Sequence record: FJ373894
Origin: Shigella phage Ag3
Strand: one strand, 5' to 3'
DNA length: 64,000 bases
Positions 16,401 to 45,570 of this stretch are shown in pieces (within the stretch, counting starts at the first letter, position 1; each line of letters begins with the position of its first letter). The position numbers were made by a program, and so were the translations under genes. The notes under the pieces are model-generated. The model ran no database searches. It was not told where the DNA came from and was given only the letters and a program-made list of their open reading frames with translations.

Positions 16401-18611
16401 TCACCGTCTCAGCCATTCTTCCATGGACATGCCAGAGCGTTCGTCATACACCTGAACTCCACCAAACCCTGGGATACTCTCTATAGAGTGAGGATCTGGT
16501 GTTGAAAGCACACCCCCGAAAGGTAACATCTGAGATTCTTCCATCGCAGATAATCTTCCTCTCATGTCCACAGAGATACTTGAGTTTGTGAGATCACTAA
16601 ACCATTCTTGTTTCACCGCCCATGCATAGAGCACGAGAGGCATCACACAGTCATCATGACAACCATCATCGGCTTCATACCTTGTCCCAGTCCATACGAA
16701 TGTACTGAGTTCATCTATCGTGTCTTGGTCATCAACCACCAGCATCTCACGTTCGATAAGCGCCTTGAGGTTAGCACAACCATTCGAACGCACTTTCTTG
16801 TTCGTGTTGATGCCAGGCTCAGGGCGGCGGCCACCAATTCGTTTGCCAGTACCCTTCGCATCTGTGGTAGTGAAGATGATCTCTGGGTATTCAATTTCCT
16901 GGTATAGAATTGTGATTACCTGGCCGCCCACGTCGTTGTTGGTTTCAACCAGCATCGGACACGTGCCATATTTCTCGCCCATGTCGGCGATAGTGTATGC
17001 ATACATCATTGGAGGTATCGTGTTGTTCCGATACTTGGCCGCAATCTTGTGAGGATAGTCTGTGATATCCAAGATGGTCAGAACAGAGTAATCCCCCTCC
17101 ACACCTTTGCCTGTATCGGCGATACCCATGTAGATGCGCTTCGGATCGTAATCGTGGTAGATCTTGGTGAACTCGTTCGGCTCCTGATAGAGTTTCGAGG
17201 TCATCTTGTCTAGACACTTGGCAGGTATCAGTGATCCTACAGAACCACGGAACTTGATACCGAATTCCTGATCGAAACGTGCATCGCCCAGCTTCGCCCT
17301 CTGTTTGGATTCCCAGTTCGGATCCTTGGTGTATGTTGGAACACGATACCATGGAACCTCTGTGAGTTTGAAGTCGTTGTACTGAGGGTGTTCTGGGTTC
17401 GCCTTGGTGACGATGTCGTAGAACAACCCGCGCTGACCTTTCGGCGTACTGGTCAGGATACAACGTGATGTATCTGCAGATGCAATCGCCGGGAATGTAG
17501 ACTCCCAGAATTCAAAGTCGTTTTCGATGAACGCCACTTCGTCCACATACAGTAGCGATACGGAACGACCACGGATAGAGTCAGAAGATGTCGCATAAGC
17601 ATAGATCTTCGATCCGTTTTCGAACTCGATGAGTGTGGAGCCGAACTTCTCACAACCCTGTTGGAGGAAGAATGGCAAATCCTGGTATGCCTTGCGGATA
17701 CGGTCTAGGATTTCAATCGCCTGCTTCTCTTTGTTCGCCAGTACCGCGATCTCTTTGTCAGAGTGGAACATCGCATACCAGAGCAGGAACGCTGCTACGA
17801 CTGTCGTGTTGTGGCTGAGGAAGCCGTTGGTGTAGTAGCGCTGATCACTAGATTTCACCTGCAGGTCAAACATGTGATGCATCTCACCAGTCTGCCATAC
17901 CTCAACGACTTCTTCTAGACCTTCTTCGGTCATTAGCCGTGAACCAGCAACCAGATCTTTAGCAAACACTTCCTTCATGTTCTGATTGAAGAACATGTGA
18001 TCATCGGCCACGTTGATACGACGACCACTGGAAGTGATGACAACGTACTCTTGGTACAGCTTAGTCTTGTGCGCGGCGATGACAGGCACCCAGCCTTTGT
18101 CACAGCGAACAAAATAACGCTTGCCGAAGCGGCTGTCTACGAACTTATCGTGTTTGCCAAAGGCATTCAGTGGCTCGGCGTGATTTGGTCCCTCGAAGCG
18201 GCTGTGAAGCTCCTCGATGGTGACTTTAAACTCTTCTTGGCTGAACGTATCGTAAACCTCGACGATGCTGTCACCCTTCACACACTTACCAGACTGACGC
18301 GCCTGAACCACGGCGTTGAAGCGGTGATCCTGGAAGTCATGGAACAGCTGCTTCTGATAATCATGCATATCGAAGAGGATGAAGCCCTTATCGATGGTCG
18401 TGATCTTGTAGTAGTTGGCGGCGAAGTAATGAGCGTCCATTGCGCACTCAACGAACTCCGATTCTTGATCGTCGGTCAACATCAACTCTACACGAGGAGC
18501 ACGCACAGACGGCTTGCGCATGAACGTCTGGTCCATACGCAATCTGACATCATCAATCTTGAATCCCGTCTTTATCGGGGCATATTCAATATCACGCTTC
18601 TGATACGCCAT
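16401..18611 (-). CDS. terminase large subunit (T4 gp17-like) carrying an intein
   Basis: MHDYQK, RQSGK|TTVVA and AYATSSDSIRG...YVDEVAFI match gp17; ORF track starts at GTG 18620, ATG 18611 has RBS. Confidence 0.9.
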   Translation of the reverse strand: MAYQKRDIEYAPIKTGFKIDDVRLRMDQTFMRKPSVRAPRVELMLTDDQESEFVECAMDAHYFAANYYKITTIDKGFILFDMHDYQKQLFHDFQDHRFNAVVQARQSGKCVKGDSIVEVYDTFSQEEFKVTIEELHSRFEGPNHAEPLNAFGKHDKFVDSRFGKRYFVRCDKGWVPVIAAHKTKLYQEYVVITSSGRRINVADDHMFFNQNMKEVFAKDLVAGSRLMTEEGLEEVVEVWQTGEMHHMFDLQVKSSDQRYYTNGFLSHNTTVVAAFLLWYAMFHSDKEIAVLANKEKQAIEILDRIRKAYQDLPFFLQQGCEKFGSTLIEFENGSKIYAYATSSDSIRGRSVSLLYVDEVAFIENDFEFWESTFPAIASADTSRCILTSTPKGQRGLFYDIVTKANPEHPQYNDFKLTEVPWYRVPTYTKDPNWESKQRAKLGDARFDQEFGIKFRGSVGSLIPAKCLDKMTSKLYQEPNEFTKIYHDYDPKRIYMGIADTGKGVEGDYSVLTILDITDYPHKIAAKYRNNTIPPMMYAYTIADMGEKYGTCPMLVETNNDVGGQVITILYQEIEYPEIIFTTTDAKGTGKRIGGRRPEPGINTNKKVRSNGCANLKALIEREMLVVDDQDTIDELSTFVWTGTRYEADDGCHDDCVMPLVLYAWAVKQEWFSDLTNSSISVDMRGRLSAMEESQMLPFGGVLSTPDPHSIESIPGFGGVQVYDERSGMSMEEWLRR
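17808..18284 (-). mobile_element. mini-intein (159 aa) in terminase Walker A motif
   Basis: Begins CVKGDSIVEV after RQSGK, ends HMFDLQV...NGFLSHN followed by T; removal restores RQSGKTTVVA. Confidence 0.8.
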
Positions 18612-19299
18612 CGTCTTCACCTTCTTCCTTCGGCTCTGCCTGAACTTCGATTACATCTTCTTCGGGATCAGGTCCTTTGGACGCAGCTTTCGCTGCAGTA
18701 CGTTCTTCAGCACGTTTACGGGCGTCTTCGATGGTCTTCAGTAGATCACGGGAAGACCTGGCCTGTTTGCCGACGTTGACCGTGGTTGTACCATCAGGGG
18801 ACGTGGTGACCTCGACGGTTGTTTCGTCCCCAGGAGGTGGCTCTTTGTCGCCTGTAACGGCCTTGATGGTCTTCTGGTTCTCCATCAGGTCTTTGTTCAG
18901 ACCGCGCATGAGTTCGCCCAACTCTTTGAAGACTGTGAACGCGCGGGGTGCTTCAGTGGTCGTCGCGAGTTTGGCCGCCTGTCCCATCATGAACATCGTG
19001 GCTTCCTGCATGGCATAAGTCGTGTCACGGATGCGTTTGTAGTCGGTGGTGGCGTCCGTGTCTTCGAAGTCTGGAACCTTAGACTCCTTGGACTTCAGCT
19101 CTTCTGGGTCCAGAGAAGGAGGGAACACCACAGGCTCATACCCTGCAGGCTTTTCACCCAACCATTCGCCTGTATCCGGATCATAATCTTTTCCAGCCAC
19201 AGGCGAGGTCTTCTCCATGACTTCTTGAGCGACCTCATCCCGCGCTTGGATAGCACCGAGGGTGGACAATAGGCGTTCTGACATAGCACTCATAATCAA
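18592..19299 (-). CDS. terminase small subunit (gp16-like)
   Basis: Directly upstream of and overlapping large terminase; central region resembles T4 gp16. Confidence 0.6.
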   Translation of the reverse strand: MIMSAMSERLLSTLGAIQARDEVAQEVMEKTSPVAGKDYDPDTGEWLGEKPAGYEPVVFPPSLDPEELKSKESKVPDFEDTDATTDYKRIRDTTYAMQEATMFMMGQAAKLATTTEAPRAFTVFKELGELMRGLNKDLMENQKTIKAVTGDKEPPPGDETTVEVTTSPDGTTTVNVGKQARSSRDLLKTIEDARKRAEERTAAKAASKGPDPEEDVIEVQAEPKEEGEDDGVSEA

Positions 19300-41681: not shown

Positions 41682-41828
41682 ATGTTTTACATGATGTTGC
41701 TCCTCATCCTCCTGATCGGGATTACCTTTACTCTCCTGGGTCTACCCGATCAGTCCGGTACTCAGTCGCCCACTTCGGCGCATCCGGTTTTGAGTGAAGG
41801 TTCGTCCGCACTGCTGTGGGCAGTGTAG
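41682..41828 (+). CDS. small hydrophobic peptide (48 aa)
   Basis: Manually found; GGAAGGGAGGG RBS; MFYMMLLLILLIGITF. Confidence 0.25.
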   Translation: MFYMMLLLILLIGITFTLLGLPDQSGTQSPTSAHPVLSEGSSALLWAV

Positions 41829-43681
41829 CTCAAAGAGGAGAGGACTTTTCAAATTAGCTGGTCTGTGGTAAAGTATTAAACACGAGGGAAACAGCGCATT
41901 GAGTTAGGCATCTAAAGCCGACCTCACTAATCCCAGTCTCAGGGGCATGCGTGAATAGAGGCGTGACATCCACCTTGCATGGTGTTAGTGGACGCACTGA
42001 CCGTCGGAGAACGAAACTCCCTGTTGTAGCGTGATTAGCTCAGAAATAGAGAGCACCCCGTTGGCAAGTCGACACCAACACATAGGGGAGGTCGGGGGCG
42101 CTAATCTCCATCACGCCGACAACATTATGAGTCTTCATAGAGGGTTCATAATGTTGCGTCAAAGGGCAACAAAGGTTCCTGTTGGTTGAATTAACTTGAT
42201 TCATAGTTCCTGCTGATCTTCCCGGATTCGAAGGAGCACCAACAGGCGAGGCCGGATGCGTAAGTTCCGGCAAATCGATGGCGAGGTGGTGCATTGGTGA
42301 CACGGGGTAGCGCCCAGAAGTGTGGTTCGATTCCACACCCTCGCCAACAAATTAAAGGGTTTTCAATAATGGATTGCAGAGTATAGTTAACCCACTGAAC
42401 GAAAAGCTGTTTGGGCACTAGACAAACACTTCGATGTGAACCCAGGACATGGCGTCTTGTGCTCAAACAGGTTTTCGTTTTCGTTGTGCGTGACTTTGCG
42501 GGTTTTAAGAAACAGACCACAAAAATAAATGCAAACGATGATGTAGTTCTGATGGCGGCGTAATAGCCTATAAGTCAGTGAGGTCTTCCGACTCCTCATA
42601 ACAAAATTCGGCGCACTAAAAATAGGCGGGAGGGTGTGATTAATAAGCTCCCGCCGACATCTGAGAGGGCACTTGATCGAGGTCGGTATCCGCTATACGG
42701 GATGCTGTAAAATGAATCCACGGAGTGTCCTCCCAGATGTGTCTCACAGCGCATCAGTTTGCAGTTATGCAAGCTTCAATAAGTTAAAACGCGCCTCAGG
42801 CGTTATGGGATAAAGCCTTAAACAGTGGAATCCCCAGGGCTGGCAATCCCTGTTAAAGAAGTAGCCGTGTGGGGGTCAGCCCCCACAACGCAAAGTAGAG
42901 TCCTCTGGACGTTGAACTTAACCCAAGGGTTGATTCACATGGTGAACGTTCCCGGCGGCGATAGTACAAGATGAGGGGTCATTGAAGTTCAGAGAACTCT
43001 ACTTTGCGGCAGGTACTGCAAAACAGTGATCATCCTGACAAGCGTGATCACTCTTCGACAAAGCATCGCATCGTGGCCATCAACCACATCCTCGCTCTAG
43101 TGATGAGTGGTGTTATGTTCTGTCGGCCAGCCTCGTTTGGTCCGAGCGTAGAGGACAAGTGCTGAAGTGTGACGAAGACACTGAAGTGCGGGTTGTTTAG
43201 TGAATCCTGCTAAGCGCAAGGGTTGAGTGGCAAGAAACACCTGAGGATAAGTCAACGCCATTATTCGCCATGATAATGGCATCGGGAGGCACCCGACGCT
43301 AAACCGTTTGGCCTGACGAAACAGGCAAGTATCTGGGGTCGATCACCTTATCCTCACCCAGATGCGGGTTGTAGCATGGCTGCAACTCTGATGGCTCTCA
43401 ATATTCCATAATGTGTATCGGTTGTGGATGACAGGTAAATGAGCGGAAAGGCGAGAGCCATCAGAGTTGTGACCAACCCGATCTTGCAAGCCCGTATCCC
43501 TGTATGGTTAAGACTTGCAAGTGGAAAGCCCTGGAAAAATAAACGCCTGTGGTGAGGCTACGGTGCAAGCCAAAGACCCACAGAAGCGCGTTGCCGTGAG
43601 GCGCACAAACAGGCATGCATGAACTGATCATGCACAAACGGGATAAAGGGTTGACAGTCCTTGGTTGGTCACACAATAATT

Positions 43682-43761
43682 TGGAGGATGATGGAAGGGG
43701 TAGACATTCCCTGAGGGGATGGCGGCAGCCGTTGAAGGTTCGAATCCTTCTCCTCCAACCA
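43682..43761 (+). tRNA. tRNA-Ser-like (anticodon UGA), non-canonical
   Basis: Perfect acceptor TGGAGGA/TCCTCCA and T-arm GAAGGTTCGAATCCTTC; long variable arm; C at position 33 and poor D-stem. Confidence 0.4.
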
Positions 43762-43946
43762 AATTGAGGGGCGATAGTTTAAGGGATAGTTGTCCGGACA
43801 GCGAATCCTCATAGAGAACGGCTGGGCGGCCAAACCCAGCAGGTGAGGTGAAAATCCTCAAACCCCGCCAAACATTGTTGGACTGCCAGCAAGCTCCGGT
43901 CTACGGCAGGCGTGATGGGATCGCGGAATTCAAATACCGCCTTGGG

Positions 43947-43956
43947 AGCACCTAAA
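43947..43956 (+). promoter_or_regulatory. late-promoter-like CTAAATAAAC upstream of small ORF
   Basis: About 35 nt upstream of ATG 43989. Confidence 0.3.
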
Positions 43957-43988
43957 TAAACCAGTTGTTCAATAAACAACTGGTGAGT

Positions 43989-44189
43989 ATGATGAAAACG
44001 TTCGGTGATTTTATTGCTGAGTGGGATGGCCTCGCCACCGACAACAAAGAGATTGTCGAGTTTGTTGAAAAGCGAGGTGACAAGTGGGTTGTCCTTGACC
44101 ACACCAAGACGAAGGTTCTTGGTACACATGACACCAAAGCTGACGCTGATGCCCAATTAAGGGCGATTGAAGCGAACAAGCACGGATAA
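43989..44189 (+). CDS. small hypothetical protein (66 aa)
   Basis: ORF track 43965..44189; ATG at 43989 after GGTGAG; CTAAATAA motif upstream. Confidence 0.4.
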   Translation: MMKTFGDFIAEWDGLATDNKEIVEFVEKRGDKWVVLDHTKTKVLGTHDTKADADAQLRAIEANKHG

Positions 44190-44190
44190 A

Positions 44191-44266
44191 GACGATGTAG
44201 TTCAGTCGGTAGAACGGCGGTCTGTTAAACCGTATGTCGCAGGTTCAAGTCCTGCCATCGTCGCCA
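44191..44266 (+). tRNA. tRNA-Asn (anticodon GUU)
   Basis: Cloverleaf by hand: acceptor GACGATG/CATCGTC, loop CTGTTAA, T-arm GCAGGTTCAAGTCCTGC, encoded CCA. Confidence 0.85.
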
Positions 44267-44523
44267 GACAATGGGTGTGAACGAAAGTGAATAGGCACGA
44301 AGTACGCGACCGACAAGCTCCAAGCCTCTGTCCAATAGCCGAACGGAATCTGAAGACGACGATAGTAACGCCCACCAAATTCAGAGTGTAGAGGCTACAG
44401 TAGTGCGCACCTCACGGGTTGCTACACCGGACACTCTGATACAAATCTGCCGCTGCGTGGATTAGCTGAGGAAGGATGGCCGATGTCCTCGAGCGTGGCC
44501 CAGCACGCAGCGGTAGACCAAAT

Positions 44524-44607
44524 GTGAGTGTGGCAGAGCGGTCGAATGCAGGAGACTGTAAATCTCCCCGTAACAGCGCGGTGGTTCGAATCCATCCACT
44601 CACACCA
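44524..44607 (+). tRNA. tRNA-Tyr (anticodon GUA)
   Basis: Acceptor GTGAGTG/CACTCAC, anticodon arm GGAGACTGTAAATCTCC, long variable arm, T-arm GGTGGTTCGAATCCATC, CCA. Confidence 0.85.
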
Positions 44608-44829
44608 AACACAGTAAGCGTTGCAGCCAGCTGTGTATAAAATGGGGTGACTCCACATCGGAAACGATGCCCCAACTTCCAGAAATGGTCGGGCGCAAAG
44701 CCTGTAAAGTTCCAGGAGATCGAACCAGAAGGCACTGGTCGCCAGTTAACCAATCGGCGCTGAGAAGCGCGGGGAGTTGGGCTACGGCAGATCAAATGCT
44801 CAATCGGGTGTGAATCCCGTTCAAATTTC

Positions 44830-44913
44830 GCGGGAGCCATAGGGGTTGGACAGTAGCCGACTGATCATCGGCGACGATCACTGGACAGGTTCGAATCCTG
44901 ATCTCCCGCTCCA
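44830..44913 (+). tRNA. tRNA-like gene, possibly Ile (GAU) or pseudo-tRNA
   Basis: Acceptor GCGGGAG/CTCCCGC, anticodon stem GCCGA/TCGGC with loop CTGATCA, T-loop TTCGAAT; extra base and 12-nt variable region. Confidence 0.35.
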
Positions 44914-44917
44914 AATT

Positions 44918-45006
44918 GGAAGGTTGCCCGAGAGGTTTAAGGGACTCGACTGCTAATCGAGTGGGGCTTTTAGCCCCCGAAGGTTCGAATCCTTCACCTT
45001 CCGCCA
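44918..45006 (+). tRNA. tRNA-Ser (anticodon GCU)
   Basis: Acceptor GGAAGGT/ACCTTCC, D-stem CCC/GGG, loop CTGCTAA, variable arm GGGGC/GCCCC, T-arm GAAGGTTCGAATCCTTC, CCA. Confidence 0.85.
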
Positions 45007-45570
45007 AATTTGCGATCATCGCGGAAATCCCAGACGCGAGTGGAGGCCAGGGTGAAGACTGGCACATGGGCACTGACGGCAAAGGTGTTCTACCTCCTGG
45101 AATTGGGTGGCCTGAATGGTAGGGAAAGCAGCCAAGCGTTGTGGGTTCAACTCCCACTCACCCAGCCCCAGATGGAATGGGTCCATCATCGCAAATCATA
45201 TTTTGGGCGTGACTTCCTGAAGAGTTAGAAGGTGTGCATGCCGACTCTCTCGTAATCGGGTGTTTAGGAAGTTAAGAAAATCGCGGCGAGGATAGTGAAA
45301 TGCAAATAGCTTTCTCTACGCCGACGACTTCAGGTTCGATTCCTGACGCGCTCTCCCATAAGGCAGTACCAGTGCGAAGTGTGTAGTCTTTTCAACCCAT
45401 CCCCATCGATGTGGTATAGCCAGGTAAGGAAACCTGGCTTTCTTTTGCCCCCAGCTTAATGTCTTCTTATCACCCCAAATATGTAATCCTTCGTCGTAGT
45501 TTGTTCAATGATACAAAGGGGTTTAAAATTTAACCGTTAAAACCCCTATCATTGATTTGAGGATACACCA

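Follow-up and report, generated by a model that had tools for sequence, protein, structure and literature searches.

Shigella phage Ag3 (sequence record FJ373894) carries the gene of its large terminase subunit, terL, on the minus strand of the stretch of 64,000 nucleotides analysed here, in the following called the window. Within this gene a segment of 159 codons interrupts the ATPase domain in frame, and this segment is described here as a mini-intein. The insert-bearing open reading frame lies at 16401..18620 (-) and comprises 739 amino acids when it is read from a GTG. This length had been given in an earlier note made from the sequence alone and holds for the mechanical reading frame, whereas the probable protein has 736 amino acids. 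It would start at an ATG at 18611, three codons past the GTG and behind GAAGGTGAAG, which is probably the true start and is preferred because the same gene is annotated with 736 amino acids in the phages Maynard, EspM4VN, AV101 and MK-13. With this start, deduced from the homologue annotations, the terL precursor gene spans 16401..18611 (-) with 736 codons and a stop codon, and the insert is numbered Cys110-Asn268 of the TerL product.

By translation, the precursor can be divided into three parts. The N-extein, residues 1-109 (18285..18611, -), ends in the first half of the Walker A motif, RQSGK (18285-18299), and can be aligned with T4 gp17 up to SRQLGK. It is followed at 17808..18284 (-) by the insert of 159 stop-free residues and 18.5 kDa, which reads CVKGDSIVEV...QRYYTNGFLSHN, extends from Cys1 to Asn159 and ends with YYTNGFLSHN. 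The C-extein (16401..17807, -; 468 codons and the stop codon) continues with TTVVAAFLLW and matches gp17 from TTVVAIFLAH on through the nuclease domain. Its first Thr (17805-17807, -) is the Thr of the Walker A motif (TTVVAAF) and would at the same time be the +1 nucleophile of a splicing reaction. The earlier note had placed the insert at exactly these coordinates, although it gave no strand, and the translation confirms the boundaries it described, namely an insert between RQSGK and TTVVAAF that begins with Cys, ends with NGFLSHN and is followed by Thr.

When the insert is removed, a protein of 577 amino acids is obtained. This protein is of the T4 gp17 type, with an N-terminal ATPase containing Walker A and Walker B motifs and a C-terminal RNase H-like nuclease, and in Pfam the exteins match Terminase_6N (4e-17) and Terminase_6C (2.8e-6). 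Against T4 gp17 (PDB 3ezk) it aligns with an E-value of 3.6e-71; the match covers residues 29-517, the GKT and LLYVDE motifs among them, and two further gp17 structures (3cpe and 2o0h) are also retrieved. The alignment is free of gaps at the junction (RQSGKTTVVAAF / RQLGKTTVVAIF; spliced ARQSGKTTVVAAFLLW opposite SRQLGKTTVVAIFLAH of gp17), in agreement with the alignment by eye of the earlier note, and therefore the insert parts the Lys from the Thr of the Walker A GKT. Furthermore, in a protein comparison the sequence RQSGK|TTVV is found at the insertion point of more than 40 homologues without an intein. Close intein-free relatives include the metagenomic sequences P0015 (85 % identity) and P0016-P0019, in which the gene order gp13-gp14-gp15-terS-terL-sheath is kept, and the DNA of intein-free relatives lines up with both junctions of the Ag3 intein. 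Kelley et al. (mBio 2016) describe the Lys|Thr position of the P-loop as a 'classic' intein insertion and name terminases as the proteins that most often host inteins in mycobacteriophages; 22 Terminase_6 inteins have been listed in bacterial genomes by Novikova et al.

To describe the insert itself, 26 mini-inteins, which are 32-82 % identical to the Ag3 intein, were cut from among 763 terminase homologues and aligned (alignment A1). Five residues of the Ag3 intein, C1, H96, D140, H158 and N159, are invariant across A1. The first of these is the block A nucleophile Cys1 (18282..18284, -), present in 26 of 26 sequences. Block B is formed by A93-D94-D95-H96 (17997..18008, -), of which A93, D94 and H96 are invariant, and the invariant Asp140 represents block F (17865..17867, -). 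Block G consists of Ser157-His158-Asn159 (17808..17816, -), likewise invariant, with the penultimate His and the terminal Asn. The +1 residue is a Thr in every family member at the GK| site. With Cys1 present and Asp140 in block F, the residue pattern is that of a class 1 intein. A class 3 intein, which lacks the N-terminal nucleophile and has a Trp-Cys-Thr triplet including a Cys in block F, was rejected, as Cys1 is present and the block F residue is Asp140 and not Cys.

A comparison of the A1 profile with the sequences of the PDB resulted in 11 matches, all of them inteins, led by VidaL (5.3e-12), gp41-1 (1.6e-11) and the consensus TerL intein CatC (7.7e-8) and followed by PhoCDC21-1, DnaX, NrdJ-1 and PolB16. 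A single-sequence phmmer search against the PDB gave a weak list, in which inteins account for six of the seven matches and CatC is the top match. An AlphaFold (AF2) model built on A1 reached a mean predicted local distance difference test score (pLDDT) of 94.2 and a predicted template modelling score of 0.87; it rests on the 26-sequence alignment, since the prediction from the single sequence (pLDDT 47) was unusable. Using this model in Foldseek, the best 50 matches in the PDB are all intein or HINT relatives, BIL and Hedgehog included, with template modelling scores up to 0.83, and the leading ones are VidaL (6e-11) and NpuDnaB (8e-9), then Mtu RecA, gp41-1 and RadA. Because of these profile and fold E-values, and because intein-free homologues join exactly at GK|TT, a chance resemblance is excluded.

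The element is a mini-intein without a homing endonuclease, as the earlier note had proposed. No endonuclease domain was found among the Pfam and NCBIfam families in the 159-residue insert, and apart from a linker of 17 residues and two short helices the model consists of the HINT core. This linker (intein residues 30-46, FEGPNHAEPLNAFGKHD; 18147..18197, -) has a lower pLDDT of 83-84 and falls into the indel-rich columns 31-75 of A1; it is the variable site at which relatives have large insertions or a split of the gene. For Ag3 a naturally split form was ruled out, as one uninterrupted frame runs through the intein, which is a contiguous member among the homologues of the split group. The reading as a group I intron was set aside, as the frame is open and the product is predicted to fold as a HINT domain. 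A search of the six-frame translation of the window with the intein profile revealed no second copy. Translation, Pfam, profile, AF2 model and Foldseek agree on the segment Cys1 to Asn159, and together with the catalytic residues and the intein-free alleles they support a class 1 mini-intein that interrupts the Walker A motif of the terminase after its Lys and before its Thr.

The earlier note had suggested a search for Hint-domain matches as a check, and the intein profile and the HINT fold match, with a marginal match to Pfam Intein_splicing (PF14890). Nevertheless, four points weigh against the assignment. With the single sequence, the PF14890 match has an E-value of 6.7e-8 and 32.9 bits, which is below the gathering threshold of 35.8. 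Likewise, the single-sequence scores of TIGR01445 (15.9 versus a cut-off of 24.5; E 0.02) and TIGR01443 (10.7 versus 15.6) do not reach their cut-offs. Third, the usual Thr of block B is replaced by an Ala, which is invariant across A1. Finally, neither a splicing experiment nor a junction peptide was found in the literature for any Ackermannviridae or Vi01-like orthologue. On the database homologues, PF14890 matches are precomputed. At the block B position an Ala is also present in VidaL (crystal structure 6vgv) and a Ser in gp41-1, as judged from the alignment; a Thr in block B is frequent in inteins, not defining. One proteomic paper names a 'terminase large subunit precursor' with a few TerL peptides, and nothing more.

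A member of the HINT superfamily could also be a pretoxin HINT or a BIL domain, which does not splice and is either only cleaved or retained. In the records of several Dickeya phages terL is indeed named 'pretoxin HINT domain protein', the Pfam family PT-HINT weakly matches the insert (E 1.2e-3), and the Foldseek list has BIL2 and Hedgehog structures among its lower entries. However, the PT-HINT (PF07591) match of 19.6 bits is below the cut-off of 27.7 and also below the Intein_splicing score, and downstream of the insert there is no toxin module but the rest of the terminase with its ATPase and nuclease. Moreover, the full set of intein residues is present, including the terminal His-Asn and the +1 Thr, and the insert sits exactly within a conserved catalytic loop, which intein-free homologues close seamlessly. 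If cleavage were not followed by ligation, about 280 viable phages would lose an enzyme that is essential to them. A non-splicing HINT domain is therefore considered highly improbable, and the label in the Dickeya phage records is due to the intein.

Selection on the intein was estimated as the ratio of nonsynonymous to synonymous divergence (dN/dS), which was taken from closer relatives since the synonymous sites are saturated versus Maynard. It amounts to 0.05 versus EspM4VN, 0.04 versus LIMEstone1 and 0.06 versus pSal-SNUABM-02, as compared to about 0.03 in the extein. Such strong purifying selection would also be expected if the 159 residues were a tolerated or functional domain that is kept in the active terminase and not removed at the protein level. 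On the other hand, as established for P-loop NTPases and for the gp17 structures 3cpe and 2o0h, the Lys and the Thr of GKT must adjoin for ATP and Mg binding, and a retained insert would part them. The invariant positions are furthermore the catalytic ones of inteins and do not form a surface or binding patch. A retained domain is thus scarcely credible, and removal of the mini-intein by protein splicing is the preferred reading.

That splicing occurs and is needed for packaging we infer because the catalytic residues are invariant, because dN/dS is as low as 0.04-0.06 and because about 280 viable, cultured and plaque-forming phages bear the intein in the essential terL gene. From the position within the ATP-binding loop, the ATPase activity of the terminase can soundly be expected to depend on splicing. 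In the proposed mechanism, a precursor of 84.6 kDa would be translated with an interrupted ATP-binding loop, and the HINT domain would then fold. Cys1 would undergo an N-S acyl shift assisted by the block B His96, and the +1 Thr would attack the thioester, resulting in a branched intermediate. This would be followed by cyclisation of Asn159, with the assistance of His158 and of Asp140 of block F. Finally, an O-N shift would restore a normal peptide bond, yielding a terminase of 66.1 kDa, in which the GKT loop is intact, and releasing the intein of 18.5 kDa. These products can be predicted at the peptide level: ARQSGKTTVVAAF would span the ligated junction, and the fully tryptic peptide TTVVAAFLLWYAMFHSDK would be expected in the product as opposed to YYTNGFLSHNTTVVAAF in the precursor.

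In addition, splicing could be conditional, so that the intein acts as a post-translational switch which times or gates DNA packaging. This would add to the splicing account and not exclude it. Roles of this kind have been proposed for P-loop inteins in the literature, and throughout the family an intein that lacks an endonuclease has been kept and is subject to strong purifying selection. Against such a switch, retention is fully explained by the lethality of an imprecise deletion from the catalytic loop, and the intein-free relatives manage without the intein. A redox switch of Cys1 and a second Cys was rejected, since no second Cys is conserved that could serve as a redox trap, Cys61 being Ser or Thr in relatives. 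Taken together, a regulatory role of the Ag3 intein appears unlikely.

Concerning the genomic context, the small terminase gene terS (18592..19299, -; Pfam DNA_Packaging, 4e-7) overlaps the terL start by about 20 nucleotides. The further neighbours encode gp15, gp14, the sheath, tube, portal, protease, scaffold and major capsid proteins, and the neighbourhood is a T4-like morphogenesis block. At the nucleotide level, terL is 99.2 % identical to the gene of Salmonella phage P46FS4, which is annotated as terminase large subunit, and 99.0 % identical to that of Shigella phage MK-13. These identities place the phage, as judged from this gene, as an Agtrevirus-type, Vi1-like member of the Ackermannviridae.

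Within the enterobacterial Ackermannviridae, about 277 records contain the intein, compared to about 280 with a closely related terL (at least 80 % identity over the query segment), and both subfamilies are represented. The Ag3 intein is 100 % identical to that of ChubbyThor, 96 % to that of EspM4VN and 95.6 % to those of Dickeya phages. Vibrio phages, for example D524 and K444, and the metagenomic relatives have intein-free terL alleles. Phages of Salicola, Delftia and Campylobacter, whose gp17-like terminases are only very distantly related, contain related inteins at the same site. A TerL intein of the Kuttervirus type (75.5 % identity) is also present in a record of 111 kb under the name 'Enterococcus phage Efm 3-10', and this record looks mislabelled or contaminated. 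The accessions KM209228, KM209320, KJ716335 and OR844942 belong to the records with these naming problems, the Dickeya phages with the pretoxin HINT label and the Enterococcus phage.

The earlier note had regarded the insertion as a marker of lateral transfer. This is correct insofar as alleles are exchanged among related phages, but it does not hold for a recent event. A recent horizontal acquisition, which would mark Ag3 or its terL as laterally transferred, would fit to the intein-free terL of close relatives (P0015-P0019 and the two Vibrio phages) and to the disagreement between intein and extein histories set out below. However, the GC content of the intein (49.9 %) equals that of the host gene (49.5 %), and because of this and of the near-universal presence in enterobacterial Ackermannviridae the intein is not regarded as a recent arrival in Ag3. 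Moreover, the closest relatives contain an identical or nearly identical intein, synonymous divergence versus Maynard is saturated alike in intein and extein (proportion of synonymous differences 0.76 in both), and there is no endonuclease to drive homing. A recent acquisition is thus very unlikely. Instead, the intein without an endonuclease would be unable to home alone and would be an old resident of the enterobacterial Ackermannviridae; as its host gene is essential, purifying selection would keep it competent for splicing.

The alleles of the intein do not follow the exteins. Between Ag3 and AV101 the exteins are 97.1 % identical and the inteins only 75.5 %, whereas AV101 (Aglimvirinae) and PhaxI (Kuttervirus) have an extein identity of 85.8 % and an intein identity of 96.2 %. 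For PhaxI and Maynard, the values are again 97.1 % in the extein and 78.6 % in the intein. A further discordance is observed for pSal-SNUABM-02, with a synonymous divergence (dS) of 1.41 in the intein versus 0.42 in the extein. The extein identities of P0052, P0076 and P0080 are distorted by an in-frame GIY-YIG fusion and were left out of the evidence for transfer. The discordance points to at least three intein alleles, which appear to have been exchanged between lineages and are distributed over the subfamilies discordantly with the extein.

On the DNA level, Ag3 and AV101 differ at 22 % of the intein positions and at 10 % of the extein positions. Here, the divergent block extends from about 60 nucleotides upstream of the intein to about 60 nucleotides short of its end and is followed by a stretch of 210 nucleotides with one mismatch. 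Because the exchanged tracts are not intein-precise, homologous recombination rather than homing is the likely route of exchange. Now and then, intein alleles would be swapped in this way among co-infecting relatives via the conserved extein flanks. The account as a whole, a splicing mini-intein which is an old resident and whose alleles are exchanged by recombination, is considered very probable.

A link of intein mobility to free-standing endonuclease genes upstream of terL is a speculation. In LIMEstone1 (locus L006 2492-2748) the gene of the free-standing homing endonuclease F-LimIX, and in pSal-SNUABM-02 (locus L007 2498-2772) the gene of a free-standing NUMOD3 endonuclease, lies directly upstream of terL, where Ag3 has terS. 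In the Ag3 stretch, terS occupies this position and no free-standing endonuclease gene adjoins terL. According to this idea, the endonuclease-free intein would still be mobile, since the upstream endonucleases would set double-strand breaks in trans ('collaborative homing'), and the contiguous, split and insertion-bearing forms of the intein would be stages of one life cycle. We regard this as rather unlikely, and homologous recombination stays the favoured route.

The element is not new but already known, since an orthologue has been annotated and was published in 2013. The GenBank record of Salmonella phage Maynard (KF669654) names the product 'intein-containing terminase large subunit, intein from Cys110-Asn268' and sets mat_peptide features at the corresponding positions, and the genome announcements of Maynard and Marshall describe the TerL intein (Tatsch et al., 2013; Luna et al., 2013). 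The inteins of these two Kuttervirus phages and of Ag3 share the gene, the RQSGK|C...SHN|TT site, the length of 159 residues, the residue numbers and the catalytic residues. In contrast to Ag3, Maynard contains another allele, with 72 % amino acid identity in the intein versus 89 % in the extein. The Ag3 allele is common to Agtrevirus (EspM4VN, ChubbyThor, P46FS4) and Limestonevirus phages, in the records of which the intein is unannotated. In the 2024 review of the Ackermannviridae the word 'intein' does not occur.

Among solved proteins, the best matches to the Ag3 intein by sequence and structure belong to the group of atypically split terminase inteins with AceL-TerL, GOS-TerL, the consensus Cat-TerL (PDB 6dsl) and VidaL (PDB 6vgv). 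The split architecture of AceL-TerL and GOS-TerL with its short N-fragment is that of many uncultured relatives of the Ag3 intein, which are split at the linker of residues 30-46. In contrast to AceL- and GOS-TerL, the Ag3 intein is contiguous and would splice in cis, and its +1 residue is a Thr, whereas a Cys is listed for AceL-, GOS- and Cat-TerL. The structure-based identity to the VidaL/TerL group is only about 20 %, and the comparison covers sequence, fold and split architecture.

The TerL1-a P-loop inteins of mycobacteriophages follow the same logic, as they interrupt Walker A where its invariant Lys meets the nucleophilic Thr, and have the same implication that splicing is needed for ATPase activity and oligomer assembly; other mycobacteriophage terminase inteins have been shown to splice (Kelley et al., 2016). 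In contrast to Ag3, with its terminase of the gp17/Terminase_6 type, the TerL1-a host is a Terminase_1, and no relationship of the intein sequences was detectable. Some mycobacteriophage terminase inteins carry active endonucleases, unlike that of Ag3. The cyanophage-like mini or split inteins gp41-1 and NrdJ-1 are, like the Ag3 intein, compact class 1 HINT domains of phage origin. However, they reside in other hosts (helicase and ribonucleotide reductase), are naturally split and are shorter (about 125-150 residues).

In a wider search, the A1 profile matched 2,766 of 1.84 billion cluster representatives at an E-value of at most 1e-3 and 331 at an E-value of at most 1e-30. Many of these matches start within their first ten residues at profile positions 40-47 and continue into the terminase C-extein; the protein P0044, for instance, begins with MSSLLSESVDRKFIESF and runs through GILSHN|TTVVGAF. 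P0044, P0128, P0181, P0222 and many others comprise the C-terminal approximately 120 intein residues, from the RKF motif on, and the terminase C-extein. Judged from their sequences, this implies that such proteins are C-terminal halves of terminases split at the linker, with an N-intein of about 40 residues encoded on a separate gene. Within this family, the Ag3 intein represents the contiguous and minimal form.

In the metagenomic gp17-like terminases P0082, P0116, P0086 and P0157, inteins of 443-523 residues are present at the same GK| site. Their additional 290-360 residues are inserted at the linker that joins block A to the conserved KF motif, and not between blocks B and F, the usual place of the endonuclease. 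Ser, Arg, Asn, Gln and Lys are abundant in this additional sequence, which is conserved when P0082 and P0116 are compared and which no Pfam family matches.

Three of the proteins (P0097, P0128 and P0123) contain two inteins, one in the P-loop and a second one just before Walker B (RG..|C...HN|C-LLY[IL]DE). The second intein of P0097 contains a SegE-like GIY-YIG domain (E 1.3e-4), which is an unusual endonuclease type for an intein. In P0080 (Vibrio phage VP-1), P0052 and P0107, the ATPase domain of the terminase continues in frame into a fused GIY-YIG endonuclease domain, which replaces the nuclease domain. This sequence arrangement suggests that the terL genes of these Vibrio-type relatives are additionally interrupted by an endonuclease gene or an intron.

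The Ag3 intein does not change the current understanding of inteins or terminases and represents an ordinary case at a classic site. The existing record is extended only by the discordance of the alleles and by the series of forms, which are contiguous, split or insertion-bearing. For annotation the assignment is of value, as the closest records state 'terminase large subunit' or, wrongly, the pretoxin HINT name. In addition, since intein and extein disagree, two histories are mixed in any terL tree or PCR marker for which the unspliced gene is used. The approximately 280 cultured phages, together with the intein-free, split and insertion-bearing relatives at one P-loop site, represent a natural series for studying how inteins persist and spread after the loss of the endonuclease. 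Furthermore, the split TerL inteins that serve as tools in protein engineering have a contiguous relative in this 18.5 kDa Thr+1 mini-intein.

Elsewhere in the window, about 1.9 kb at 41.8-43.7 kb contains no open reading frame of at least 120 amino acids and adjoins a tRNA cluster (region 41800-45010). Here, ARAGORN predicts the tRNAs Ser-tga (43682-43761), Asn (44191-44266), Tyr (44524-44607) and Ser-gct (44918-45006), of which all except Ser-tga, that is three of the four, reach the Rfam gathering threshold. In the RefSeq record of MK-13 about 2.3 kb of the same region is unannotated, and one tRNA is named 'Ile'.

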